Shown here: one piece after another, positions 9,059 to 20,946 of the stretch
How the letters are laid out: each line of letters starts with the position of its first letter
Position numbering within the stretch: the first letter of the stretch is position 1
Source of the DNA: Candidatus Thorarchaeota archaeon
Lineage (GTDB): Archaea; Asgardarchaeota; Thorarchaeia; Thorarchaeales; Thorarchaeaceae
DNA length: 21,894 bases
Assembly: GCA_003345555.1 (NCBI GenBank)
Contig: PRDJ01000056.1
Span: forward strand, 1 to 21,894
Direction of reading: 5' to 3'
The notes under the pieces: generated by a model
Told to the model about the DNA's origin: nothing
Databases searched by the model: none
Seen by the model: the letters and a program-made list of their open reading frames with translations, nothing else
Translations under genes and position numbers: made by a program

Positions 9059-9123
9059 TCTAACAAAGGATTTAGGACAGATGCTTGTCTAGAGAGCAAC
9101 CCAGACGTAGGAGTGCGATTCGC

Positions 9124-10080
9124 GTGAAACTAGTAAAACCAAGAAGAATCGCCGAAGGCGATACAATTGGGGTAGTTGCACCATCTCATCCTGTCACGTT
9201 GTTTCAGAAACAGTACAATGACGGGATTAGGAACCTCAGACAACTCGGCTTCGGGGTGAAAGAGGGCAAGACTGTGGGACTTACTTACAGAGACTACATG
9301 GCAGGAACAGACAAGGAAAGAGCAGAAGACATCAACGCCATGTTTGCAGACCGAGAGGTGAAAGCAATCGTGTGTGCCTTAGGTGGGCAGGTGGCAATTC
9401 GCACACTGCGTCATCTGGACTTCAACGTGATTAGGGCAAATCCAAAGGTCTTCTCTGGAATGAGCGATATCACAACCTACCATCTGGCCTTCTTGGCGCG
9501 CTCAGGTCTCAGTGGACTTCATCAACACGATGTGACCTTTGGATTTGGTACTGACCTAGACAGTGGCGATGCCAAATTTGAACGGAATCTCTTCTTCAAG
9601 CTCACCATGAATCCGGAGAGATTAGGGCAAATACCGGCCCTCACCAAGTGGGAGGTCTGGCGCGAAGGTTCCGCCAAGGGCAGGTTGTTCGGTGGCAACA
9701 TGAATAGTATTCAGTGTTCAATAGGAACACGCTACATTCCCAGTTTGGACGAAGATATCATCTTCTTTTGGGAAGCGATGACTCAGCCCCTTAGCCACAT
9801 TGATCAGAAGTTGGCTCACTTCAGAGAAGCAGGCCTGTTCGACAGAGCTGCTGGAATGCTCATCGGCAAAATCAGAGGGGAGGAAGGAGGGTCCGTTAAA
9901 GACATGACAGCTGATGTGAAACCAGCCGTAATGGATATAGCTGATGAGTTTGACTTCCCAGTTATCGCAGGGATGGACTTCGGCCACTACACACCCAATG
10001 TACCATTGCCAATGTGGCTGAAAGCAAGTATGAACACCGACGAGGTCAAGGTTAGTGTTGACGAGCCATTTGTTACATAG
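9124..10080 (+). CDS. Peptidase S66 family (LD-carboxypeptidase / MccF-like)
   Basis: KP..I..GDTIGVVAPS; catalytic Ser in GMSDIT; GRLFGGN; Glu in FFWE; His in DFGH. GTG 9124 with upstream GGAG is preferred over TTG 9085. Confidence 0.92.
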   Translation: MKLVKPRRIAEGDTIGVVAPSHPVTLFQKQYNDGIRNLRQLGFGVKEGKTVGLTYRDYMAGTDKERAEDINAMFADREVKAIVCALGGQVAIRTLRHLDFNVIRANPKVFSGMSDITTYHLAFLARSGLSGLHQHDVTFGFGTDLDSGDAKFERNLFFKLTMNPERLGQIPALTKWEVWREGSAKGRLFGGNMNSIQCSIGTRYIPSLDEDIIFFWEAMTQPLSHIDQKLAHFREAGLFDRAAGMLIGKIRGEEGGSVKDMTADVKPAVMDIADEFDFPVIAGMDFGHYTPNVPLPMWLKASMNTDEVKVSVDEPFVT

Positions 10081-13073: not shown

Positions 13074-13099
13074 AAGTGAATTGTGGAAAGGGCATTCCT

Positions 13100-14974
13100 T
13101 CACGGAGTCGGTGTCACAGGAGACTTTCGGGATATTCTAGACACTATTGTGCTGCCCAAGAGACCAAGAAACGCGAAGAGAGTGAACGCCAAGTATGAAA
13201 GGACCACAAAAAAGTACATTATTGGCCGGTCTGCGTCCGGAGCAAACCAAAGTAGTCCCGGTCCCACATCAACTATGAAGTACGCAGTTGTAAGCAGAAA
13301 AACAACTGTTACTAGAAAGACAAACGCAGTGGCCCATGGCGTCATGTCGGATTTGTTTGGGGATACGCGATTCGTCGCCTTGAGCAACAGTAAGAGAAGG
13401 ACCCCGCCTAGTACGATCGCAAAGAGGGTCGGACCAAAGGTCATCACCAGAAACTCCTCAACACTTGTGAAGAAGTAGCTGGCAGAGAATCTCCAGCCAA
13501 ACAACAATAGCCCAATGTACAGGAAGCCGAAGTAGGCTAGGACGCTGATGACTACAACCAGCATCCTGAGCCCGTCAGTTGCTGTGTTCCTTGCCCGGGC
13601 CATGGGGCCTCGTATGACAATCGCCACGAGCAGAATGACTACGGCTGAAATCGCCGTGACAACAACCAGTCTCACTGTGCGTTCCTCGGCAGCCTTTGCC
13701 GCCCACGACTCTCGCAGAACAGTCTCAGCAGTTGCTTGCGCTAAAGCTGCGTCTTGTATAGCTGCAGTCCAGTTTCCGCCGGTGAAGTTGCCCCTCGAGT
13801 ATACAACATGAATTGCACAATCTGCGAGAGACGCTGCGTAGATTGAAAGGTAGCCCATCTTGCTGACTGTCTTTCCGGCTTGGGTCATGCGTACCTCTGA
13901 GAGATTGATTCTATGGATAGCTTCCTGCTGTTGAGTCAAGTTGAGGCATTCAAAGAGAATGGTTCCAGAGCAGTCGGAAGGAACCGCCCAGCCCATAGCA
14001 GCGGCAATCGTGGGAGCAATTGAGTTCTGATGTGCTGACGCGCCATAGACGCCGGGTATGACCCCCGGTCCCCTTATGATGAGAGGAATATGAAGCACGC
14101 TCTCTTCGGTTCCACCATGCTCTCCGTGACCGGGACGAGCATCTACTTGACCATGATCTGCTGCCACGATCACCAGTGTCGAGTTTAGTAGTCCAGCAGC
14201 TTCGTAGGCGTCCAGGATTTCCCCAACGTAGAAGTCCTCGTCCTTGAACGCATTCACATACGATTCGCTAGACGTACCATTCTCATGTCCAGCCTCGTCC
14301 GTTCCTCCGAAATGAACAAGCATGAATGTTGGCTGATGACGCTCCAGAACCAAACGGGCATACGAGGATACAAGACTGTCATGATATGCAGGCAGCAATG
14401 TCTCGTTCACTGCAGCTCCACTTGTAGCATTAATGACCGTAACAGCACGATTCGGTACCATCGTGGTGAAGGTGAGAGAATAGTTGAGCCACGGACCGAA
14501 TAGCTCGTTCCAGTCGTCACTACCTACGACAGCCGTGGTTCCTGAATTCGCGATTGTCGTATTCCAAACTGAGTCGGCCCGGAATACGCCCGCCACGTCG
14601 TTGCTGATCACTCCGCTTTCGGTTGAATTCACTCCCGAAGGAATCACGGCGTATCCGGTTCTACTTACGCTTAGAAGGGTCGAACAATGCACCGCCGTGA
14701 AGTTGGCCCAGTTTCCCAATGATTCAATATGTGGCTTTGGAGTGTTATAGAAAGTGTCTGCCCGAAGGCCATCGAGCACGAATACGACAGTGTGGTTGGC
14801 AAGTGGAATGGCGCCCATCCCATCAATGGACGAGACCGGTCCCGTCGGAATGTAGCTGTATGGATTGGTAAATGACGTGTAGGTTGAGAGGCCTGACACT
14901 AACAGCCCTATGTAGGAAAACGAGACCAACAGGAGAAAGGCCGCTGTATACCTCACACTGCGGTTTTTTGACAT
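13100..14974 (-). CDS. Membrane-bound alkaline-phosphatase-superfamily protein (phosphodiesterase / phosphoethanolamine-transferase-like)
   Basis: Metal-binding motifs VLDGLRAD, HFGGTDEAGH, AADHG and HGG; likely nucleophile Ser in LSVSR. One N-terminal and about 5 C-terminal hydrophobic helices; 13 sequons between them. Confidence 0.85.
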   Translation of the reverse strand: MSKNRSVRYTAAFLLLVSFSYIGLLVSGLSTYTSFTNPYSYIPTGPVSSIDGMGAIPLANHTVVFVLDGLRADTFYNTPKPHIESLGNWANFTAVHCSTLLSVSRTGYAVIPSGVNSTESGVISNDVAGVFRADSVWNTTIANSGTTAVVGSDDWNELFGPWLNYSLTFTTMVPNRAVTVINATSGAAVNETLLPAYHDSLVSSYARLVLERHQPTFMLVHFGGTDEAGHENGTSSESYVNAFKDEDFYVGEILDAYEAAGLLNSTLVIVAADHGQVDARPGHGEHGGTEESVLHIPLIIRGPGVIPGVYGASAHQNSIAPTIAAAMGWAVPSDCSGTILFECLNLTQQQEAIHRINLSEVRMTQAGKTVSKMGYLSIYAASLADCAIHVVYSRGNFTGGNWTAAIQDAALAQATAETVLRESWAAKAAEERTVRLVVVTAISAVVILLVAIVIRGPMARARNTATDGLRMLVVVISVLAYFGFLYIGLLLFGWRFSASYFFTSVEEFLVMTFGPTLFAIVLGGVLLLLLLKATNRVSPNKSDMTPWATAFVFLVTVVFLLTTAYFIVDVGPGLLWFAPDADRPIMYFFVVLSYLAFTLFAFLGLLGSTIVSRISRKSPVTPTP

Positions 14975-15058
14975 CAGACCGACAACTCCTCTGCGAGTAT
15001 TCTACGTTATTGCAGGAAAAAGCACGAACTGCCGATGCTATATCAATTGCTTCTCCTC

Positions 15059-16708
15059 TCACTTTACCTCGCGAAGCTCGCGGCGAAGGATTTTCCCTAT
15101 CGCACTTTTTGGCAATGACGGAACAAAGGAGATTATTCGTGGGTACTTGTACGCGGCCATGTGCTCCTTTGCCCAGTCTCTGACTTCGTCCTCAGTCACT
15201 TTTCCTACGCACTCTGGCTTCAGCTTGATGAATGCCTTGATCGTTTCGCCTGCAGTCGGATCGGGAATTCCAACCACCGCACACTCAGCAATTGCAGGAT
15301 GTCTGTAAAGAATATCCTCAACCTCAGCTGGAAAGACTGAGTATGCTTTGTACTTGATTAGATCCTTCTTTCTATCACCGATGTATACATACCCATCTTC
15401 ATCGAACCTTCCGATATCGCCGGTATGCATCCATCCTCCCTTGAGGGTCTCTTCTGTCTCCTTTTTCTTTCCCCAGTATCCAGTCATGACTTGGGGCCCG
15501 CGAACAAGTATCTCGCCCCACTCGCCTGTGGGCATGACTTTCGTGTCATCGGTACTGTCAACTATCTTGAGGTCGGTATTGAAGATTGGAATGCCTACAC
15601 TTCCCGGCCGTAGCACGCCCTCTGGAATCAACGTCTGAATAGGTGAGGTTTCTGTCATTCCGTATCCTTCGACAATGTACTGCCCAGTCAGCCCTTGGAA
15701 CTTCTCAAGAATTTCAACAGGAAGAGGAGCTGCACCAGAGAAGGCATGCTTCAAGGACTTTAGATTCTCCTTCTTGAAACTTGGGTGACCCAGCATTGAT
15801 ACATACAGTGTAGGTACGCCCACGAGGACTGTTGCCTTGTATTTCGGCAGTACATGCAGGACTTCCTTGAGGTCCGGCCGAGGAATCATGATTATGCTGG
15901 CGGCGATACAGGATGCAAGCACGAGCACGCACGAGAGACCGAACGCATGGAAGAAGGGAAGGACGCCTACAAAGCACTCATTTCCTTCGTTGACGTTAAA
16001 CCACTTGCGACCTGCCTCTGCATTGAACATGAGATTGCGATGAGTGAGCATTGCACCCTTGGGTAGTCCAGTGGTACCACCCGTGAAGAGAAGCGTAGCC
16101 ACGTCGTCAGCATTCAGTCTATTCTCCGGTGGTTTTGCAGGCTGATTTGACATTACTTGATTGAAGAACCGGATTTCAGCTCCTTTAGGCAATTCTGGAT
16201 GTGGAATCTTCCCCACAAGTTTTCCCAGTACGGCCTTTGCTCTCGGCAAGTATTCGCCTGTCTTCGTGTATACAACGGTTTCGACCTCTGTGTCTTTCCG
16301 CCCCTTCTCGACGACGTCATGGAATATGTCAAGAGCAACCATGATTTTCGTTCCAGTGCTCTCCAACTGGTGATGTAGTTCAAGCTCCTTCAAGAGCGGG
16401 TTTACTGGCGTGATTGCGCCACCTGCTTTGAAAGTGCCAAAGAAAGCAATGGGAAACTGTGGCAGGTTTGGCACCATGACTGCAACCCGATCCCCCTTTT
16501 TGATTCCGAGGTTCAGAAGTCCATGAGCAAATCGATTGCTCATTTCATCGATTTCTCGGAAGCTGATGGTCTTCCCCATGATGTAGTATGCCGGATGATT
16601 GGGGAATCGCTTGGCTGTCGCCATCAGCGCTTCATGAATTGTAAGATTAGGAACCTGAATGTCATGAGGCAAATCCTTCGGCCAACTCTTGTGCCAAAAC
16701 CGCTCCAT
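15059..16708 (-). CDS. fadD: Long-chain fatty-acid--CoA ligase (ANL superfamily)
   Basis: FTGGTTGLPKG, EGYGMTE, TGD and PKSAIGK adenylation motifs. ATG 16708 has GAGG upstream; the ORF track starts at TTG 16738. Confidence 0.92.
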   Translation of the reverse strand: MERFWHKSWPKDLPHDIQVPNLTIHEALMATAKRFPNHPAYYIMGKTISFREIDEMSNRFAHGLLNLGIKKGDRVAVMVPNLPQFPIAFFGTFKAGGAITPVNPLLKELELHHQLESTGTKIMVALDIFHDVVEKGRKDTEVETVVYTKTGEYLPRAKAVLGKLVGKIPHPELPKGAEIRFFNQVMSNQPAKPPENRLNADDVATLLFTGGTTGLPKGAMLTHRNLMFNAEAGRKWFNVNEGNECFVGVLPFFHAFGLSCVLVLASCIAASIIMIPRPDLKEVLHVLPKYKATVLVGVPTLYVSMLGHPSFKKENLKSLKHAFSGAAPLPVEILEKFQGLTGQYIVEGYGMTETSPIQTLIPEGVLRPGSVGIPIFNTDLKIVDSTDDTKVMPTGEWGEILVRGPQVMTGYWGKKKETEETLKGGWMHTGDIGRFDEDGYVYIGDRKKDLIKYKAYSVFPAEVEDILYRHPAIAECAVVGIPDPTAGETIKAFIKLKPECVGKVTEDEVRDWAKEHMAAYKYPRIISFVPSLPKSAIGKILRRELREVK

Positions 16709-16883
16709 CACATTTCCTCTCCGAAATCGACCAAGCAAGAGATACTGTCACGCAGAACAGCCATATAACAGCACTGATTTCCTGCAAACCGGCTTAGGAG
16801 AGGCGGAGACTCTCAAAGGCAAACAATTTGTAGTACGAAAGCTAAGAGCAATGATGCGATTCGCGTCTTGGGGATAGCTCGAT

Positions 16884-18869
16884 ATGAAGACAATCACAGT
16901 GATTGGCGCTGGCACAATGGGACATGGCATTGCACAGCTCGCCGCCATGGCGGGCTACCAAGTCTACTTGAACGATGTGAAGAAGGAATTCCTTGACAAG
17001 GGCCTTGAGCGGATAAAATGGAGCATAGGCAAATTTTCAGAGAAGAAGCAGCTCACTAAGGAGCAGGCAGATGAGATTCTCGGGAGAATCAAGCCTGAAC
17101 TCGATCTTGCCAAGGCCGTGAAGCCTGCGGACATAGTCATTGAAGCCATAATCGAAGACATGTCTGCAAAGCAGGAACTGGCACGGAACGTTGACAAGTA
17201 CGGCAGGAAAGGACTGATCCTGGCCTCCAATACCAGCACCCTGCCGATTACTGAGATAGCATCCGCATTCTCACACCCAGAGAACGTAATTGGCATGCAC
17301 TTTTTCGCCCCGCCCCAGCTAATGCCCTTAGTAGAAATCATCAGGGGCGAGAAGACCTCAGACGACACCCTAACAACAATAGTAGACTTGTCACGACAGA
17401 TGGGAAAGGACGTTGTGATTTGTCGAAAGGATGTTCCCGGTTTCATTGTAAACCGTATGTTAGGGCCCCTGCTCAATGAAGCAGCATGGATGGTTGAACG
17501 CGGTGAAGCAACCATCGCCGCTATTGATTCGGCCGTGAAGTACAGGCTGTCCCTGCCGATGGGATTGTTCGAACTTGCTGACTACAGCGGTGTTGACGTT
17601 ATCCATAATGCACAGAAGTACTTCCTGAAACGAGGACTCACCACAAACCAACCGGCAGTCTGGGAGAAGAAGGTGAAGGCACAAGAAATAGGCATGAAAG
17701 TCGGGAAAGGATTCTATACATACAAGAAAGGGGCTCTTGGATGGGAAAGACCGGATATTCCCAGAGATGCCGGCAACAATGTAGACCTTGTCAGGCTATT
17801 TGCCCCAGCTATTAGCTCTGGAGCCGAAGTTGTCAGGATGGATATTGCGACAAAGGAAGATGTCGACAAGTCAGTAAAAATGGGGCTGGGTTTCCCGAAG
17901 GGCATCCTAGAAATGGCGGATGAATTTGGACTTGACAAGGTAGTCGATGCCCTTGACGGGCTGCGCACCAAATTCGGCGATTTCTACAAGTCAGACCCTC
18001 TCCTTCAGCAGATGGTAACCGAGGGGCGCACTGGAAAAGCAGCTGGCAAAGGGTTCTATGACTACAAGGAGAAGACCACAGAATACCAGACCATTATCCT
18101 CAGGAAAGAACCTGAGAATAAGATCGCTTGGCTGATAATCAACAGACCACACAGACTCAACACCTTCACCCTTGACTCAATCGGCGAGCTCCGGCGGGCG
18201 TTTCTTGATATCGCTGATGACAAGGAAACGAGAGTGCTGATAGTCACAGGTGCAGGCGACAAAGCATTCTGTACAGGAGCTGACTTGACTGCATTCTCCG
18301 GAGAATTAAACCCTTCAACGGCCCGCGACCTCTCTGCAAAGGGTCACGACCTTTTCGCAATGATAGAGAAGCTTTCTCAGCCGGTCATCGCGGCCATAAA
18401 CGGGTATGCGCTCGGCGGAGGATGTGAACTATCTTTGGCCTGCGACTTCCGAATCGCCGCCGAACGGGCCAAAATTGGACTGACTGAACTCCAGCTTTCA
18501 TTGCTCCCAGGTTGGGGTGGCACACAGCGGCTTCCACGGATTATAGGACTGGCCAAGGCGAAAGAGGCCATCATGCTGTCACGGCGATACACGGCACAGG
18601 AGGCCTTGGCAATTGGCCTAGTGAACAGGGTCATACCAAACGAGAAGTTCGAAGAGGAGGTCAGGGCATTCGCCAAGGACCTTGCACAGCAGTCACCAAT
18701 TGCGATTAAGCTTGTGAAGCAGTGCCTCAATCAGGGTACGCAGGTACCTCTTGATGTCGGGATGGAGTTGGAGGCCCAGTGCTTCGGCACTATGTTCTCA
18801 ACGGAGGATGTCTTCGAAGGGATTGCGGCATTCATGGAGAAGAGAAAACCCGAGTTCAAGGGTAAGTAG
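16884..18869 (+). CDS. fadB: 3-hydroxyacyl-CoA dehydrogenase / enoyl-CoA hydratase, archaeal domain order (crotonase C-terminal)
   Basis: GAGTMG Rossmann motif, SNTS, MHFF..P...LVE and PGFIVNR; a duplicated dimerisation domain; then a crotonase domain with AFCTGAD, GGGCE and E..L..LPGWGGTQRL. Confidence 0.95.
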   Translation: MKTITVIGAGTMGHGIAQLAAMAGYQVYLNDVKKEFLDKGLERIKWSIGKFSEKKQLTKEQADEILGRIKPELDLAKAVKPADIVIEAIIEDMSAKQELARNVDKYGRKGLILASNTSTLPITEIASAFSHPENVIGMHFFAPPQLMPLVEIIRGEKTSDDTLTTIVDLSRQMGKDVVICRKDVPGFIVNRMLGPLLNEAAWMVERGEATIAAIDSAVKYRLSLPMGLFELADYSGVDVIHNAQKYFLKRGLTTNQPAVWEKKVKAQEIGMKVGKGFYTYKKGALGWERPDIPRDAGNNVDLVRLFAPAISSGAEVVRMDIATKEDVDKSVKMGLGFPKGILEMADEFGLDKVVDALDGLRTKFGDFYKSDPLLQQMVTEGRTGKAAGKGFYDYKEKTTEYQTIILRKEPENKIAWLIINRPHRLNTFTLDSIGELRRAFLDIADDKETRVLIVTGAGDKAFCTGADLTAFSGELNPSTARDLSAKGHDLFAMIEKLSQPVIAAINGYALGGGCELSLACDFRIAAERAKIGLTELQLSLLPGWGGTQRLPRIIGLAKAKEAIMLSRRYTAQEALAIGLVNRVIPNEKFEEEVRAFAKDLAQQSPIAIKLVKQCLNQGTQVPLDVGMELEAQCFGTMFSTEDVFEGIAAFMEKRKPEFKGK

Positions 18870-18883
18870 GAGGATAGAAGAAG

Positions 18884-20059
18884 ATGCCAACGAAGAAAAC
18901 CGCAGAAGCAGTCATAGTGGAAGCAACTCGAACGCCAATCGGCAAAAAGAATGGAAGCTTGGCCAACCTCAGGCCCGATGAACTGGCTTCTCACGTTCTT
19001 CGAGAGGTTGTCAGGCGCACGAAGATTGATCCTGCAATCGTAGATGATGTGATAATGGGTTGTAACACGCAGACAGCGCAACAGGCCGCCAACATAGGAC
19101 GATTGTCCGTCTTGGGTGCAGGTTTTCCATATACGGTTCCGGCATGCACTCTAAACCGAGCATGCGGATCCTCACAGCAGGCTGTGAATTTCGGTGCGCA
19201 ATCGATAGTCACAAGGAACGCTGATGTCGTGATTGGAGCAGGTGTTGAACATATGACGCTCCTACCTATTGGCGCTGACTTTGGCGAGGACTACGCTGCT
19301 TTCAATCCGAAGCTGATTGAGAAGTATGAGTTAGTACCAATGACCATGAGCTCGGACATGATGGCTGAGAAGTACAAGATACCAAGGATGGAACTGGACA
19401 AGTTTGCTCTGTGGAGTCACAAGAAGGCCGTTGCAGCTTGGGATGCGGGGAAGTTCGAGAGAGAGGTTACTCCAATCGAAGCTCCTCAAGCAGATGGAAG
19501 CAACACGATTGTCAAGAAAGATGATAGCCCACGCCGCGATACATCTCTTGAGAAACTGGCTTCACTGCCAACCCTTCATGGTGGGACAACTACAGCCGGC
19601 AATGCATGTCCCATAAATGATGGAGCCGCAGCTGTTCTGATGATGTCCCAAGAAAAGGCAGACGAACTCGGTCTGAAAGCACGAGCAGTCATCCGGTCTC
19701 AAGCAGTCGTTGGGGTCGAACCAGTGACATGTCTTGAAGGACCAATCTATGCTATACCGAAATGCCTTGGACGCGCGGGACTTACCCTGAGTGATATCGA
19801 TCTCATGGAGATTAACGAAGCATTTGCGTCGGTGATACTGGCTACAGGCAAGATGTTGCGTTTCGATGCCCAGTCTGACAAGCGACTTGCCGTTCACGGT
19901 GGGTCGATAGCCTTGGGGCATCCGTTGGGAGCTTCTGGTGCTCGGCTGATAACGACTGTCTTGCATGCTCTCGAGGATCGAAGACTGAGATATGGGCTTG
20001 TTTCGATGTGCGTCGGACTAGGACTGGGAACAGCAACAATCATTGAACGTGTGAAGTGA
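18884..20059 (+). CDS. fadA: Acetyl-CoA C-acyltransferase (thiolase)
   Basis: NRACGSS (catalytic Cys), NEAF, GHPLGASG and MCVGLG; GGAGG SD; 14 nt downstream of fadB. Confidence 0.95.
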   Translation: MPTKKTAEAVIVEATRTPIGKKNGSLANLRPDELASHVLREVVRRTKIDPAIVDDVIMGCNTQTAQQAANIGRLSVLGAGFPYTVPACTLNRACGSSQQAVNFGAQSIVTRNADVVIGAGVEHMTLLPIGADFGEDYAAFNPKLIEKYELVPMTMSSDMMAEKYKIPRMELDKFALWSHKKAVAAWDAGKFEREVTPIEAPQADGSNTIVKKDDSPRRDTSLEKLASLPTLHGGTTTAGNACPINDGAAAVLMMSQEKADELGLKARAVIRSQAVVGVEPVTCLEGPIYAIPKCLGRAGLTLSDIDLMEINEAFASVILATGKMLRFDAQSDKRLAVHGGSIALGHPLGASGARLITTVLHALEDRRLRYGLVSMCVGLGLGTATIIERVK

Positions 20060-20139: not shown

Positions 20140-20946
20140 GTGAACATCGAAAAGGCCGTTGCCTTTGTGACCGCCAGAGGTGACCCCATCCAAATCGGGC
20201 GAATGTCATCGATTCTCTGGGGTCAGAAACAGAGCAGTTCTGCCACGAAGAGACTCTATGGAATGCAGAATGAAGACGGGGGATTCTCGACGGAGAAGGG
20301 CGGCTTCAGCACAGTCTGTTTCACAGTCAACGTGCTGTCTTGGCTCGATGACCTTAGGATTAGAGAAGGAACACTAGTCGACAGCGCAATACGATTCCTC
20401 AAAATGCATCAGAAAGCCGATGGCGGCTGGGATGAGGTAGAGGCACTGAAGACTGCAAATCCACCGCTATATATGATGCCGGGAGAAATCCGGACGCGGA
20501 TATGGCTCACTGCGTGTTGTGCCCATTGGCTCACTCGGTTCGGACGTATTGAGCCATCCGGTTCCAAGGGAAGTCCAGCCAGCTTTCTACTCAAACAGAG
20601 AGAACGAACCGGTCTACTGAAAGGTTACTTGAGGGCCACTTGGGATTCTCTCGTCTTATTCAGCTATTACCCGGGCCCTGATTCAGATGAATTCAAGGAG
20701 ACCCTCAGGGCGATTGAAAGTACGTACAAACCTTCAGAGTTGGAAGCGTCGAATCTTGCATGGCTTCTCACTTGTCTCAGGCACTCTGAACTGCCCAGTA
20801 GTCATCAGCTGGTTGGACAGGCGATCAATGAGTTGGCAAGGCGGCAAAGGGCAGATGGTAGTTGGAGCTCGGAGGACGGGGACAAGTTCGCTGTGAATGC
20901 GACGGTCGATGCGTTGCGTGTTCTTAGATACTACGACAGACTGTAA
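20140..20946 (+). CDS. Prenyltransferase/squalene-cyclase (QW) repeat protein, single alpha-barrel domain
   Basis: QNEDGGF, QKADGGW and QRADGSW repeats; no DxDD motif seen; GTG start. Confidence 0.8.
   Translation: MNIEKAVAFVTARGDPIQIGRMSSILWGQKQSSSATKRLYGMQNEDGGFSTEKGGFSTVCFTVNVLSWLDDLRIREGTLVDSAIRFLKMHQKADGGWDEVEALKTANPPLYMMPGEIRTRIWLTACCAHWLTRFGRIEPSGSKGSPASFLLKQRERTGLLKGYLRATWDSLVLFSYYPGPDSDEFKETLRAIESTYKPSELEASNLAWLLTCLRHSELPSSHQLVGQAINELARRQRADGSWSSEDGDKFAVNATVDALRVLRYYDRL

Follow-up and report, generated by a model that had tools for sequence, protein, structure and literature searches.

A Thorarchaeota membrane protein that is a distant cousin of the GPI-ethanolamine-phosphate transferases

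The minus strand of a 21,894-nucleotide stretch from a Candidatus Thorarchaeota archaeon (contig PRDJ01000056.1 of assembly GCA_003345555.1; this whole stretch is called the window below) carries, at positions 13100..14974, an intact open reading frame (ORF) that starts with ATG and encodes a 624-amino-acid membrane protein. An earlier note, made from the sequence alone, took this protein for a PIG-N/Mcd4-like phosphoethanolamine transferase, but our analysis places it further away: it is a distant cousin, not an ortholog, of the glycosylphosphatidylinositol (GPI)-ethanolamine-phosphate (EtNP) transferases PIG-N, PIG-O and PIG-G. Sequence comparison points to significant homology between its catalytic domain and that of the GPI-EtNP transferases, represented here by Gpi13, and over its full length it belongs to a mainly bacterial family with one N-terminal transmembrane helix (TM) and five C-terminal ones, which we refer to as the 1+5 TM family. 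As for its function, we tentatively favour, at somewhat less than an even chance, a role as an N-glycosylated surface enzyme that would transfer a phospho-head group from a membrane lipid to a surface glycan or glycolipid.

Catalytic site, topology and family

The Pfam profile PF01663 (Phosphodiest) matches residues 62-280 of the protein with 59 bits, against a cut-off of 23, and there are partial matches to the Sulfatase and Metalloenzyme profiles, PF00884 covering residues 184-328 alone. The motifs on which the earlier note relied are all present by coordinate (DGLRAD at residues 68-73, SVSR at 102-105, DEAGH at 226-230, DHG at 273-275 and HGG at 286-288), and DSVWN, VGSDD and PLIIRGPGV can be seen in the alignment of homologs. 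Residues D68, S102, S104, N125, D226, H230, D273, H274 and H286 are invariant in 36 Asgard sequences, also when Chloroflexota and other bacteria are added; the metal-ligand set consists of D68, D226, H230, D273, H274 and H286, and N125 joins the site. When the protein is aligned with HMMER to the Xanthomonas (Xac) NPP, S104 falls on T90, which is the nucleophile position, and N125 falls on Asn111, with the DEAGH and DHG blocks coinciding with the NPP metal ligands. As judged from its sequence, the protein belongs to the NPP-type (PF01663) two-metal enzymes of the alkaline phosphatase (AP) superfamily, with Ser104 as its predicted nucleophile.

Structure comparison, one of the checks proposed in the earlier note, bore out the AP fold but placed hydrolases nearer to it than the transferases LtaS and EptA. 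A fold search of the catalytic domain (VIA-align) against about 48,000 PDB representatives gave matches to PafA (Z 27.1), sulfatases (Z about 24), Xac NPP (Z 23.3) and ENPP7 (Z 23.2), compared with Z 18.7 for LtaS and 17.6 for EptA/MCR-1, and no structure of a GPI-EtNP transferase was among the PDB matches, whether by sequence or by fold (Foldseek, VIA-align). The NPPs and PafA, which are soluble or single-pass hydrolases, have the fold and the two-metal site in common with the Thorarchaeota protein, but they lack its multi-TM membrane domain with conserved loops. Furthermore, the NPP nucleophile is Thr instead of Ser, and the last His ligand, which in the Thorarchaeota protein follows DHG by 12 residues, is found in NPPs about 100 residues downstream. 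EptA/MCR-1 and LtaS, the model of lipid-donor use, resemble the Thorarchaeota protein in combining an AP-superfamily exoplasmic domain with a five-helix membrane domain. Nevertheless, their domain order is reversed, with the five TMs at the N-terminus, their catalytic domain is of the PF00884 type and their nucleophile is Thr; both were also absent from the best 60 PDB sequence-search matches listed. We rejected an assignment to the EptA/LtaS type given the C-terminal position of the TMs, the Ser nucleophile and the weaker fold match (Z 17.6-18.7 as opposed to 23-27).

Hydropathy and the AlphaFold2 (AF2) model of the 624-residue protein (pLDDT 85.2, pTM 0.83) agree with the one N-terminal and five C-terminal helices described in the earlier note, and they place an alpha/beta domain between them at about residues 55-345. 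The N-terminus is cytoplasmic, and the C-terminal TMs lie at residues 436-454, 472-490, 513-531, 550-568 and 588-606. Between the catalytic domain and the membrane there is a stalk of three helices, two of them complete and the third formed by the outer stretch of a long helix running on into TM2. Counts of lysine and arginine fit a topology in which both termini are inside and the catalytic domain and both conserved loops are outside. An outside location of the catalytic domain is also indicated by the enrichment of N-X-S/T sequons, as residues 34-435 contain 13 of them compared with 3.7 +/- 1.7 in shuffled sequences, and 0 of 2000 shuffles reached that number; the sequon-rich outer domain of the earlier note is thus real, and the sequons at N91, N116, N164 and N182 are each kept in at least 34 of 36 homologs. 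Conservation extends to the membrane interface, where the outer end of TM2 and the two loops facing outward carry conserved motifs. In the loop GWRFSASYF, S497 and S499 are invariant and the bacterial equivalent reads 'G...SLS..N', while in the loop GPGLLWFAPDADRPIMYF the invariant residues are G573, L574, W576 and Y587 and the bacterial equivalent reads 'W..PDL..GFKYY'. Arg435, at the membrane edge, is near-invariant (at least 90% conserved across Asgard archaea and bacteria).

Homologs of the protein are numerous. In Asgard archaea we found 41 full-length ones with 41-80% identity and lengths of about 600-633 amino acids, those with a named source coming from Thorarchaeota, Odinarchaeota and Atabeyarchaeum. 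A profile search through 1.84 billion representatives returned 114 proteins below 1e-30, mostly of 550-620 amino acids, and in about 130 of the top 150 representatives an AP domain lies between a single N-terminal TM and about five TMs at the C-terminal end. Among named genomes, a scan located the family in Chloroflexota/Anaerolineae, Clostridia (Bacillota), Coriobacteriia, other Actinomycetota, Myxococcota (Kofleriaceae) and Acidobacteriota, and the names of clusters extend this list to Hod-, Baldr-, Heimdall- and Gerdarchaeota and Bathyarchaeia. When the Asgard alignment was compared by hhalign with 30 further members, most of them bacterial but with Heimdall/Gerd and Bathyarchaeia proteins included, the probability was 100% and the E-value 7e-81 over 559 columns, which span TM1 to the last TM and include both conserved outward loops. 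Given this full-length match, the Thorarchaeota protein belongs to a prokaryotic family that is large and uncharacterised, and the caution voiced in the earlier note, that generic bacterial alkaline-phosphatase-family membrane proteins have several of the same motifs, was well placed. Proteins of this family are annotated as 'alkaline phosphatase family protein' or 'predicted AlkP superfamily pyrophosphatase or phosphodiesterase', and they have TM1, a membrane-proximal Y-x-P-Y, the catalytic residues, the stalk, the five TMs and the loops in common. The Asgard and other archaeal members differ from the bacterial ones in that their catalytic domain carries about 25 inserted residues and in the number of sequons, which is 7-15 in the former and mostly 0-2 in the latter.

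Within Asgard archaea the gene is accessory, and its distribution there and in Bathyarchaeia is patchy. Among the 301 Asgard genomes searched it turned up in 35, and among the 90 high-quality ones in 5; in the host's own family, 12 of 76 genomes have it, and it was not found in many relatives that are 95-99% complete. A single in-frame stop (TGA, TAA or TAG) lies within the match in the Asgard genomes G242, G218, G262, G020, G050 and G041, and these cases could be pseudogenes, sequencing errors or split genes.

Kinship with the GPI-EtNP transferases

Among the matches listed for a plain homology search and for the profile search of 1.84 billion representatives there were no proteins of PIG-N/O/G size. 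When a truncated profile of Asgard and bacterial members was run against 5.8 billion proteins, considering those longer than 840 amino acids, it matched a protein of 1133 amino acids (P0224) at E 3.4e-16, whose relatives are named Gpi13 or GPI ethanolamine phosphate transferase 3 in many fungi. This protein seeded a set of 120 fungal Gpi13 sequences, and our sequence comparison with GPI-EtNP transferases covers Gpi13/PIG-O alone. By hhalign against 22 Gpi13 sequences, the Asgard family reached a probability of 97.7% (E 2e-12, 185 columns) and the bacterial family one of 99.9% (E 1.3e-34, 291 columns). The bacterial match takes in the whole catalytic domain and the first stalk helix, and in it the Ser equivalent to Ser104 pairs with the last of the three Thr residues in the Gpi13 motif PPTTT. 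An HMM of the family catalytic domain gave 314-400 bits for core Asgard proteins, 143-301 for bacterial members, 103-159 for the long forms described below, 103-127 for soluble bacterial relatives, 64-90 for Gpi13 and 40-50 for sulfatases.

The kinship proposed in the earlier note is therefore upheld for the catalytic domain, and it is in the membrane that the likeness ends. The GPI-EtNP transferases (PIG-O/Gpi13, PIG-N/Mcd4 and PIG-G/Gpi7) have the same order of parts as the Thorarchaeota protein, namely an N-terminal TM, an outer catalytic domain of the PF01663 type, a stalk and a TM bundle. The colinear motif series that the earlier note had described for PIG-N could be matched against genuine fungal Gpi13/PIG-O sequences, in which D-x-x-R-x-D, the nucleophile loop, D-x-x-G-H and DHG...G-x-HGG follow one another as they do in the Thorarchaeota protein; the short 'DHG...G.HGG' spacing is common to Gpi13 and the Thorarchaeota family and unlike that of NPPs, although the nucleophile is Thr in Gpi13 and Ser in the Thorarchaeota protein. 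On the other hand, the GPI-EtNP transferases have about 14 C-terminal TMs and the Thorarchaeota protein has 5, so that only the domain order of the PIG-N-like layout stands, and the membrane domain has no detectable homology with that of Gpi13: hhalign of the post-catalytic and membrane regions against Gpi13 gave non-significant probabilities of 8.8% and 0.1%. An identity of the PIG-N/Mcd4 type is contradicted by the absence of the corresponding C-terminal domains, since neither PF04987 (PigN) nor PF19316 (PIGO_PIGG), domains of about 10-14 helices, matches the protein or the genome at E<=1. A likeness between the membrane motif GWRFSASYF and STGHQATLSSIQW of Gpi13 was considered and rejected, the hhalign probability being at most 8.8%.

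The truncated-profile search that led to Gpi13 also turned up a second kind of prokaryotic relative. P0221 (889 amino acids, OIP37367.1, from Deltaproteobacteria bacterium CG2_30_63_29) has one N-terminal and 14-15 C-terminal TMs, and P0223 (941 amino acids) is another prokaryotic long form with the same layout. These proteins have the catalytic domain and stalk of the 1+5 TM family (P0221 against the bacterial family, E 4e-39), but their 14-15 C-terminal TMs match the architecture of the GPI-EtNP transferases and not the 5 of the Thorarchaeota protein. In a maximum-likelihood (ML) tree of 74 sequences and 269 columns (LG+C20+F+G4), Gpi13 and the two long forms are grouped with support of 99/97, on branches that are long. 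The Thorarchaeota protein is located in a core Asgard clade of 10 sequences (100/100), which lies within a mostly archaeal clade of 23 sequences (99/93) that is itself embedded among bacterial members. Soluble and single-TM relatives, such as Mesorhizobium proteins of 279 amino acids and single-TM forms from Curtobacterium and Spirillospora, also nest in the family tree.

The phylogeny suggested in the earlier note gives a divided answer: the ML tree has Gpi13 apart from the Asgard clade, but approximately unbiased (AU) tests, for groups that were named after a tree had been seen, do not reject an Asgard attachment. A clade of Asgard proteins and Gpi13 had p 0.53, this value being relative to an inferior quick tree, which the careful ML tree superseded as the constrained tree had scored better than it. 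Adding the long forms to that clade gave p 0.49, with a constrained lnL higher by 0.6, and joining the archaeal clade to Gpi13 without the long forms gave a delta lnL of -10 and p 0.27. The ESM Atlas provides independent leads that agree in direction with the ML tree. There, the Thorarchaeota protein is nearest to bacterial clusters of 550-600 amino acids (0.93-0.96), and PigN and PIGO_PIGG clusters appear at 0.88-0.90, with 144-152 shared features, within the top 30 of 7.7 million. For P0221, the nearest clusters come from Myxococcota and Thermoplasmatota (about 820-850 amino acids), and this long form reaches GPI-ET3 and GPI-ET1 at 0.93, with 183-185 shared features. The long forms may be the closest prokaryotic relatives of PIG-N/O/G.

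Possible functions

The genome of the host, which is 93% complete, offers some information on which substrates could be available. The earlier note had called for a search for other GPI-pathway homologs, and no PIGA domain, PIG-V, GT22 (PIG-B/Z), Gaa1 or GWT1 was found in it, with a weak PIG-M match of 18 bits; these negatives are themselves weak because several of the searches matched in no control genome. The one match above its cut-off is a membrane protein of 516 amino acids on contig C42 (L004:1129-2679, plus strand), which fits the Pfam family PIG-U, a GT-C-like subunit of the GPI transamidase, with 42.8 bits against a cut-off of 24.5. A GPI pathway is not evident in this genome. With regard to lipids, the host genome yielded no phosphatidylserine (PS) decarboxylase in a search that was positive in 8 of 14 control genomes, and no convincing candidate for an archaetidylserine synthase (20 bits at best). 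An ethanolamine-lipid donor is therefore not evident, and phosphoethanolamine, the group whose transfer the earlier note proposed, is disfavoured in this host. The genome does encode three CDP-alcohol phosphatidyltransferases (L085 on contig C77, L086 on C10 and L087 on C57), of which two are paralogs resembling archaetidylinositol-phosphate (AIP) synthase, with 149 and 120 bits and thus under the equivalog cut-off of 180 bits, and the third is PgsA/ClsA-like.

The GPI-EtNP transferases, EptA and LtaS all transfer lipid-derived phospho-head groups, and the transfer that we favour for the Thorarchaeota protein would follow the way in which the GPI-EtNP transferases are thought to work. The signal-anchor and the five-helix bundle would hold the protein in the membrane, with the heavily N-glycosylated AP domain outside on its helical stalk. 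The exoplasmic loops and Arg435 would present a membrane lipid at the outer leaflet, where Ser104 would attack its phosphodiester, and a covalent intermediate between the phospho-head group and the enzyme would form on this residue. Either water or a hydroxyl group on a surface glycan or glycolipid would then accept the phospho-head group. The donor head group in this host is more likely to be phospho-inositol or phospho-glycerol than phosphoethanolamine, because the genome combines the lack of a detected PS decarboxylase with two AIP-synthase-like paralogs and a PgsA-like one.

Several observations weigh against such a transfer. The 1+5 TM family has no characterised member; the catalytic fold is, by the Z scores given above, nearer to the hydrolases PafA, NPP and the sulfatases than to the transferases LtaS and EptA; neither an acceptor pathway nor a conserved gene neighbourhood was found; and the patchy presence of the gene in Asgard genomes means that it is not tied to a core process. 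An outward hydrolase acting on a membrane-bound substrate is a rival reading, which we regard as unlikely. Such an enzyme would cleave a lipid-linked phosphodiester or pyrophosphate, or strip a phospho-head group from surface glycoconjugates, with the TM bundle positioning the lipid; a polyprenyl-(pyro)phosphate-linked glycan or a spent carrier would be examples of its substrates. The top fold matches are hydrolases, including PafA, NPP and ENPP7, the last of which is an alkaline sphingomyelinase and thus a lipid phosphodiesterase, the conserved interface loops would suit a lipid substrate equally well, and no acceptor pathway was found. However, the closest multi-TM relatives of known function, the GPI-EtNP transferases, are transferases, and the known carrier-lipid phosphatases belong to other families, PAP2 and BacA/UppP. 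It is also conceivable, though distinctly improbable, that the protein is a generic surface phosphodiesterase or phosphatase for soluble substrates, serving phosphate or nucleotide scavenging, with a membrane domain that is a mere anchor. The PF01663/NPP-type site, PafA as the top structural match, the soluble and single-TM relatives nested in the family tree and the patchy accessory distribution are all consistent with this, but five helices with invariant loops kept from Asgard archaea to Chloroflexota go beyond the needs of an anchor, for which TM1 would suffice.

The proposal closest to the earlier note makes the protein a genuine ortholog of PIG-N/O/G in archaea, or their direct ancestor, which would place phosphoethanolamine on a GPI-like glycolipid in an archaeal GPI pathway. 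This proposal seems to us very unlikely. It can draw on the catalytic-domain homology and the common domain order, on the AU tests that do not reject a clade of Asgard proteins and Gpi13, on the homologs in Heimdall- and Hodarchaeota, on the PIG-U-like protein encoded in the genome and on a 2026 preprint that has PIGO among the GPI genes of possible archaeal origin (10.64898/2026.05.08.723234). Nevertheless, the protein has no PigN or PIGO_PIGG domain, and its 5 TMs, compared with the 14 or so of those enzymes, show no detectable homology to the Gpi13 membrane region; the ML tree puts Gpi13 with the long forms and the Asgard proteins in a separate clade; the Atlas puts the long forms nearer to the GPI-EtNP transferases than the Thorarchaeota protein; PIG-A, PIG-V, GT22, Gaa1, GWT1 and PS decarboxylase were not found in the 93%-complete host genome; and the gene was not found in most of the Asgard genomes searched. 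There is, in addition, a slim chance that the archaeal 1+5 TM clade (Thor-, Odin-, Hod-, Heimdall-, Gerd- and Baldrarchaeia and Bathyarchaeia) was the source of the catalytic module of the eukaryotic GPI-EtNP transferases, in which case it would decorate Asgard surface glycans or glycolipids with lipid-derived phospho-head groups, as a kind of pre-GPI chemistry.

Gene surroundings and significance

The features of the gene and its closest neighbours are given in Table 1. The spacer between the start codon and the stop of the preceding acyl-CoA synthetase gene contains GAGGAG about 12-17 nt ahead of the ATG, as well as A/T-rich stretches that could be a candidate archaeal promoter. The antisense ORF over the 3' end of the conserved gene is taken as a shadow ORF and not as a gene.

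Table 1. Coordinates in the window of the gene, its parts and adjoining features
Feature	Positions	Strand	Basis
Complete gene, membrane-embedded AP-superfamily (NPP/PF01663-type) enzyme	13100..14974	-	ORF, PF01663 59 bits, homologs, AF2 model
TM1, N-terminal signal-anchor, residues 11-29	14888..14944	-	Hydropathy, DSSP helix 5-33, 3 K/R in residues 1-10
Exoplasmic catalytic domain, residues 55-345, two-metal site	13940..14812	-	Invariant residues, fold matches, Gpi13 alignment
Ser104 codon, predicted nucleophile, motif S-V-S-R	14663..14665	-	Invariant; nucleophile position in Xac NPP alignment
Helical stalk, residues 348-435	13670..13933	-	DSSP helices 348-373, 376-398, 402-461
C-terminal five-helix membrane domain, residues 436-617	13124..13669	-	AF2 model/DSSP and hydropathy
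Exoplasmic loop motif GWRFSASYF, residues 493-501, between TM3 and TM4	13472..13498	-	Invariant columns
Exoplasmic loop GPGLLWFAPDADRPIMYF, residues 571-588, between TM5 and TM6	13211..13264	-	Conservation in Asgard alignment
Spacer upstream of start codon, after acyl-CoA synthetase stop, 84 bp	14975..15058	-	Direct sequence reading
Antisense ORF, 131 aa, over 3' end of conserved gene	13083..13478	+	ORF list
Acyl-CoA synthetase	15059-16738	-	
Fused 3-hydroxyacyl-CoA dehydrogenase/enoyl-CoA hydratase	16884-18869	+	
Thiolase	18884-20059	+	

A beta-oxidation-type cluster (15059-20059) adjoins the gene, and the acyl-CoA synthetase and fused dehydrogenase/hydratase genes are also adjacent in the nearest relative, L005. 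This is the only Asgard synteny that was seen, and the gene neighbourhoods of the Asgard and bacterial homologs carry no conserved pathway signal. In a subclade from Actinomycetota, Coriobacteriia and Eubacteriales, the 1+5 TM gene is located beside genes for UbiD, a UbiX-like flavoprotein, a UbiA prenyltransferase, a HAD hydrolase, a nitroreductase and a GT4 (loci L021, L029, L032, L033, L035, L043, L045 and L052), which may be either a functional link or merely an adjoining quinone-pathway cluster, and in Chloroflexi loci it adjoins an epimerase gene. One protein from an ENA metagenome (P0222, 1070 amino acids) is a fusion of LPG_synthase_TM (residues 20-336), TMs, the AP domain of the family (580-823) and GT2 (851-1009). 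This arrangement hints at a connection with the chemistry of lipid-linked glycans, but we did not use it as a Rosetta stone, as it is a single sequence and has no TM between the AP and GT2 domains, which makes the membrane side of the AP domain ambiguous. Elsewhere in the window, an ORF of 268 amino acids (20140-20946, plus strand) has weak matches of 31 and 28 bits to the N- and C-terminal repeats of squalene-hopene cyclase, which suggests a short protein of the terpenoid-cyclase/prenyltransferase-repeat type, and positions 9085-10080 (plus strand) encode an LD-carboxypeptidase with N- and C-terminal Peptidase_S66 domains (E 3e-36 and 3e-24), a type of peptidoglycan-recycling enzyme, here in an archaeon.

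Recent publications have already connected GPI anchoring with archaea. A 2026 Nature paper (PMC12872458) describes GPI-anchor synthesis as Asgard-derived at the level of the pathway, and a preprint (10.64898/2026.05.08.723234) includes PIGO (K05288) in a group of four GPI genes that potentially originated in archaea, and notes contributions from Myxococcota as well. An archaeal link for a GPI-EtNP transferase has therefore been proposed in survey form. In our literature searches we found no description of the anatomy of the 1+5 TM family, with its Ser nucleophile and conserved outward loops, of its mainly bacterial spread, or of 14-TM prokaryotic long forms that seem nearer to the eukaryotic enzymes.

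With regard to how GPI anchoring arose in eukaryotes, recent surveys have traced some components of the pathway, PIGO among them, to Asgard archaea or to Myxococcota. Our results indicate that the prokaryotic relatives of the GPI-EtNP transferases are of two kinds, a large family of surface enzymes with 5 TMs, to which the Asgard protein belongs, and rarer long forms with 14 TMs, which are found in Myxococcota-like bacteria and, according to the Atlas, in Thermoplasmatota, and which look closer to the eukaryotic enzymes. For the Asgard host, the gene would represent an accessory enzyme of surface modification or phosphoester processing and not a core trait. For the family as a whole, the function of a single bacterial member would extend to thousands of entries now named 'alkaline phosphatase family protein', and a characterised member would show whether the transfer of phospho-head groups from lipids to glycans predates eukaryotes.

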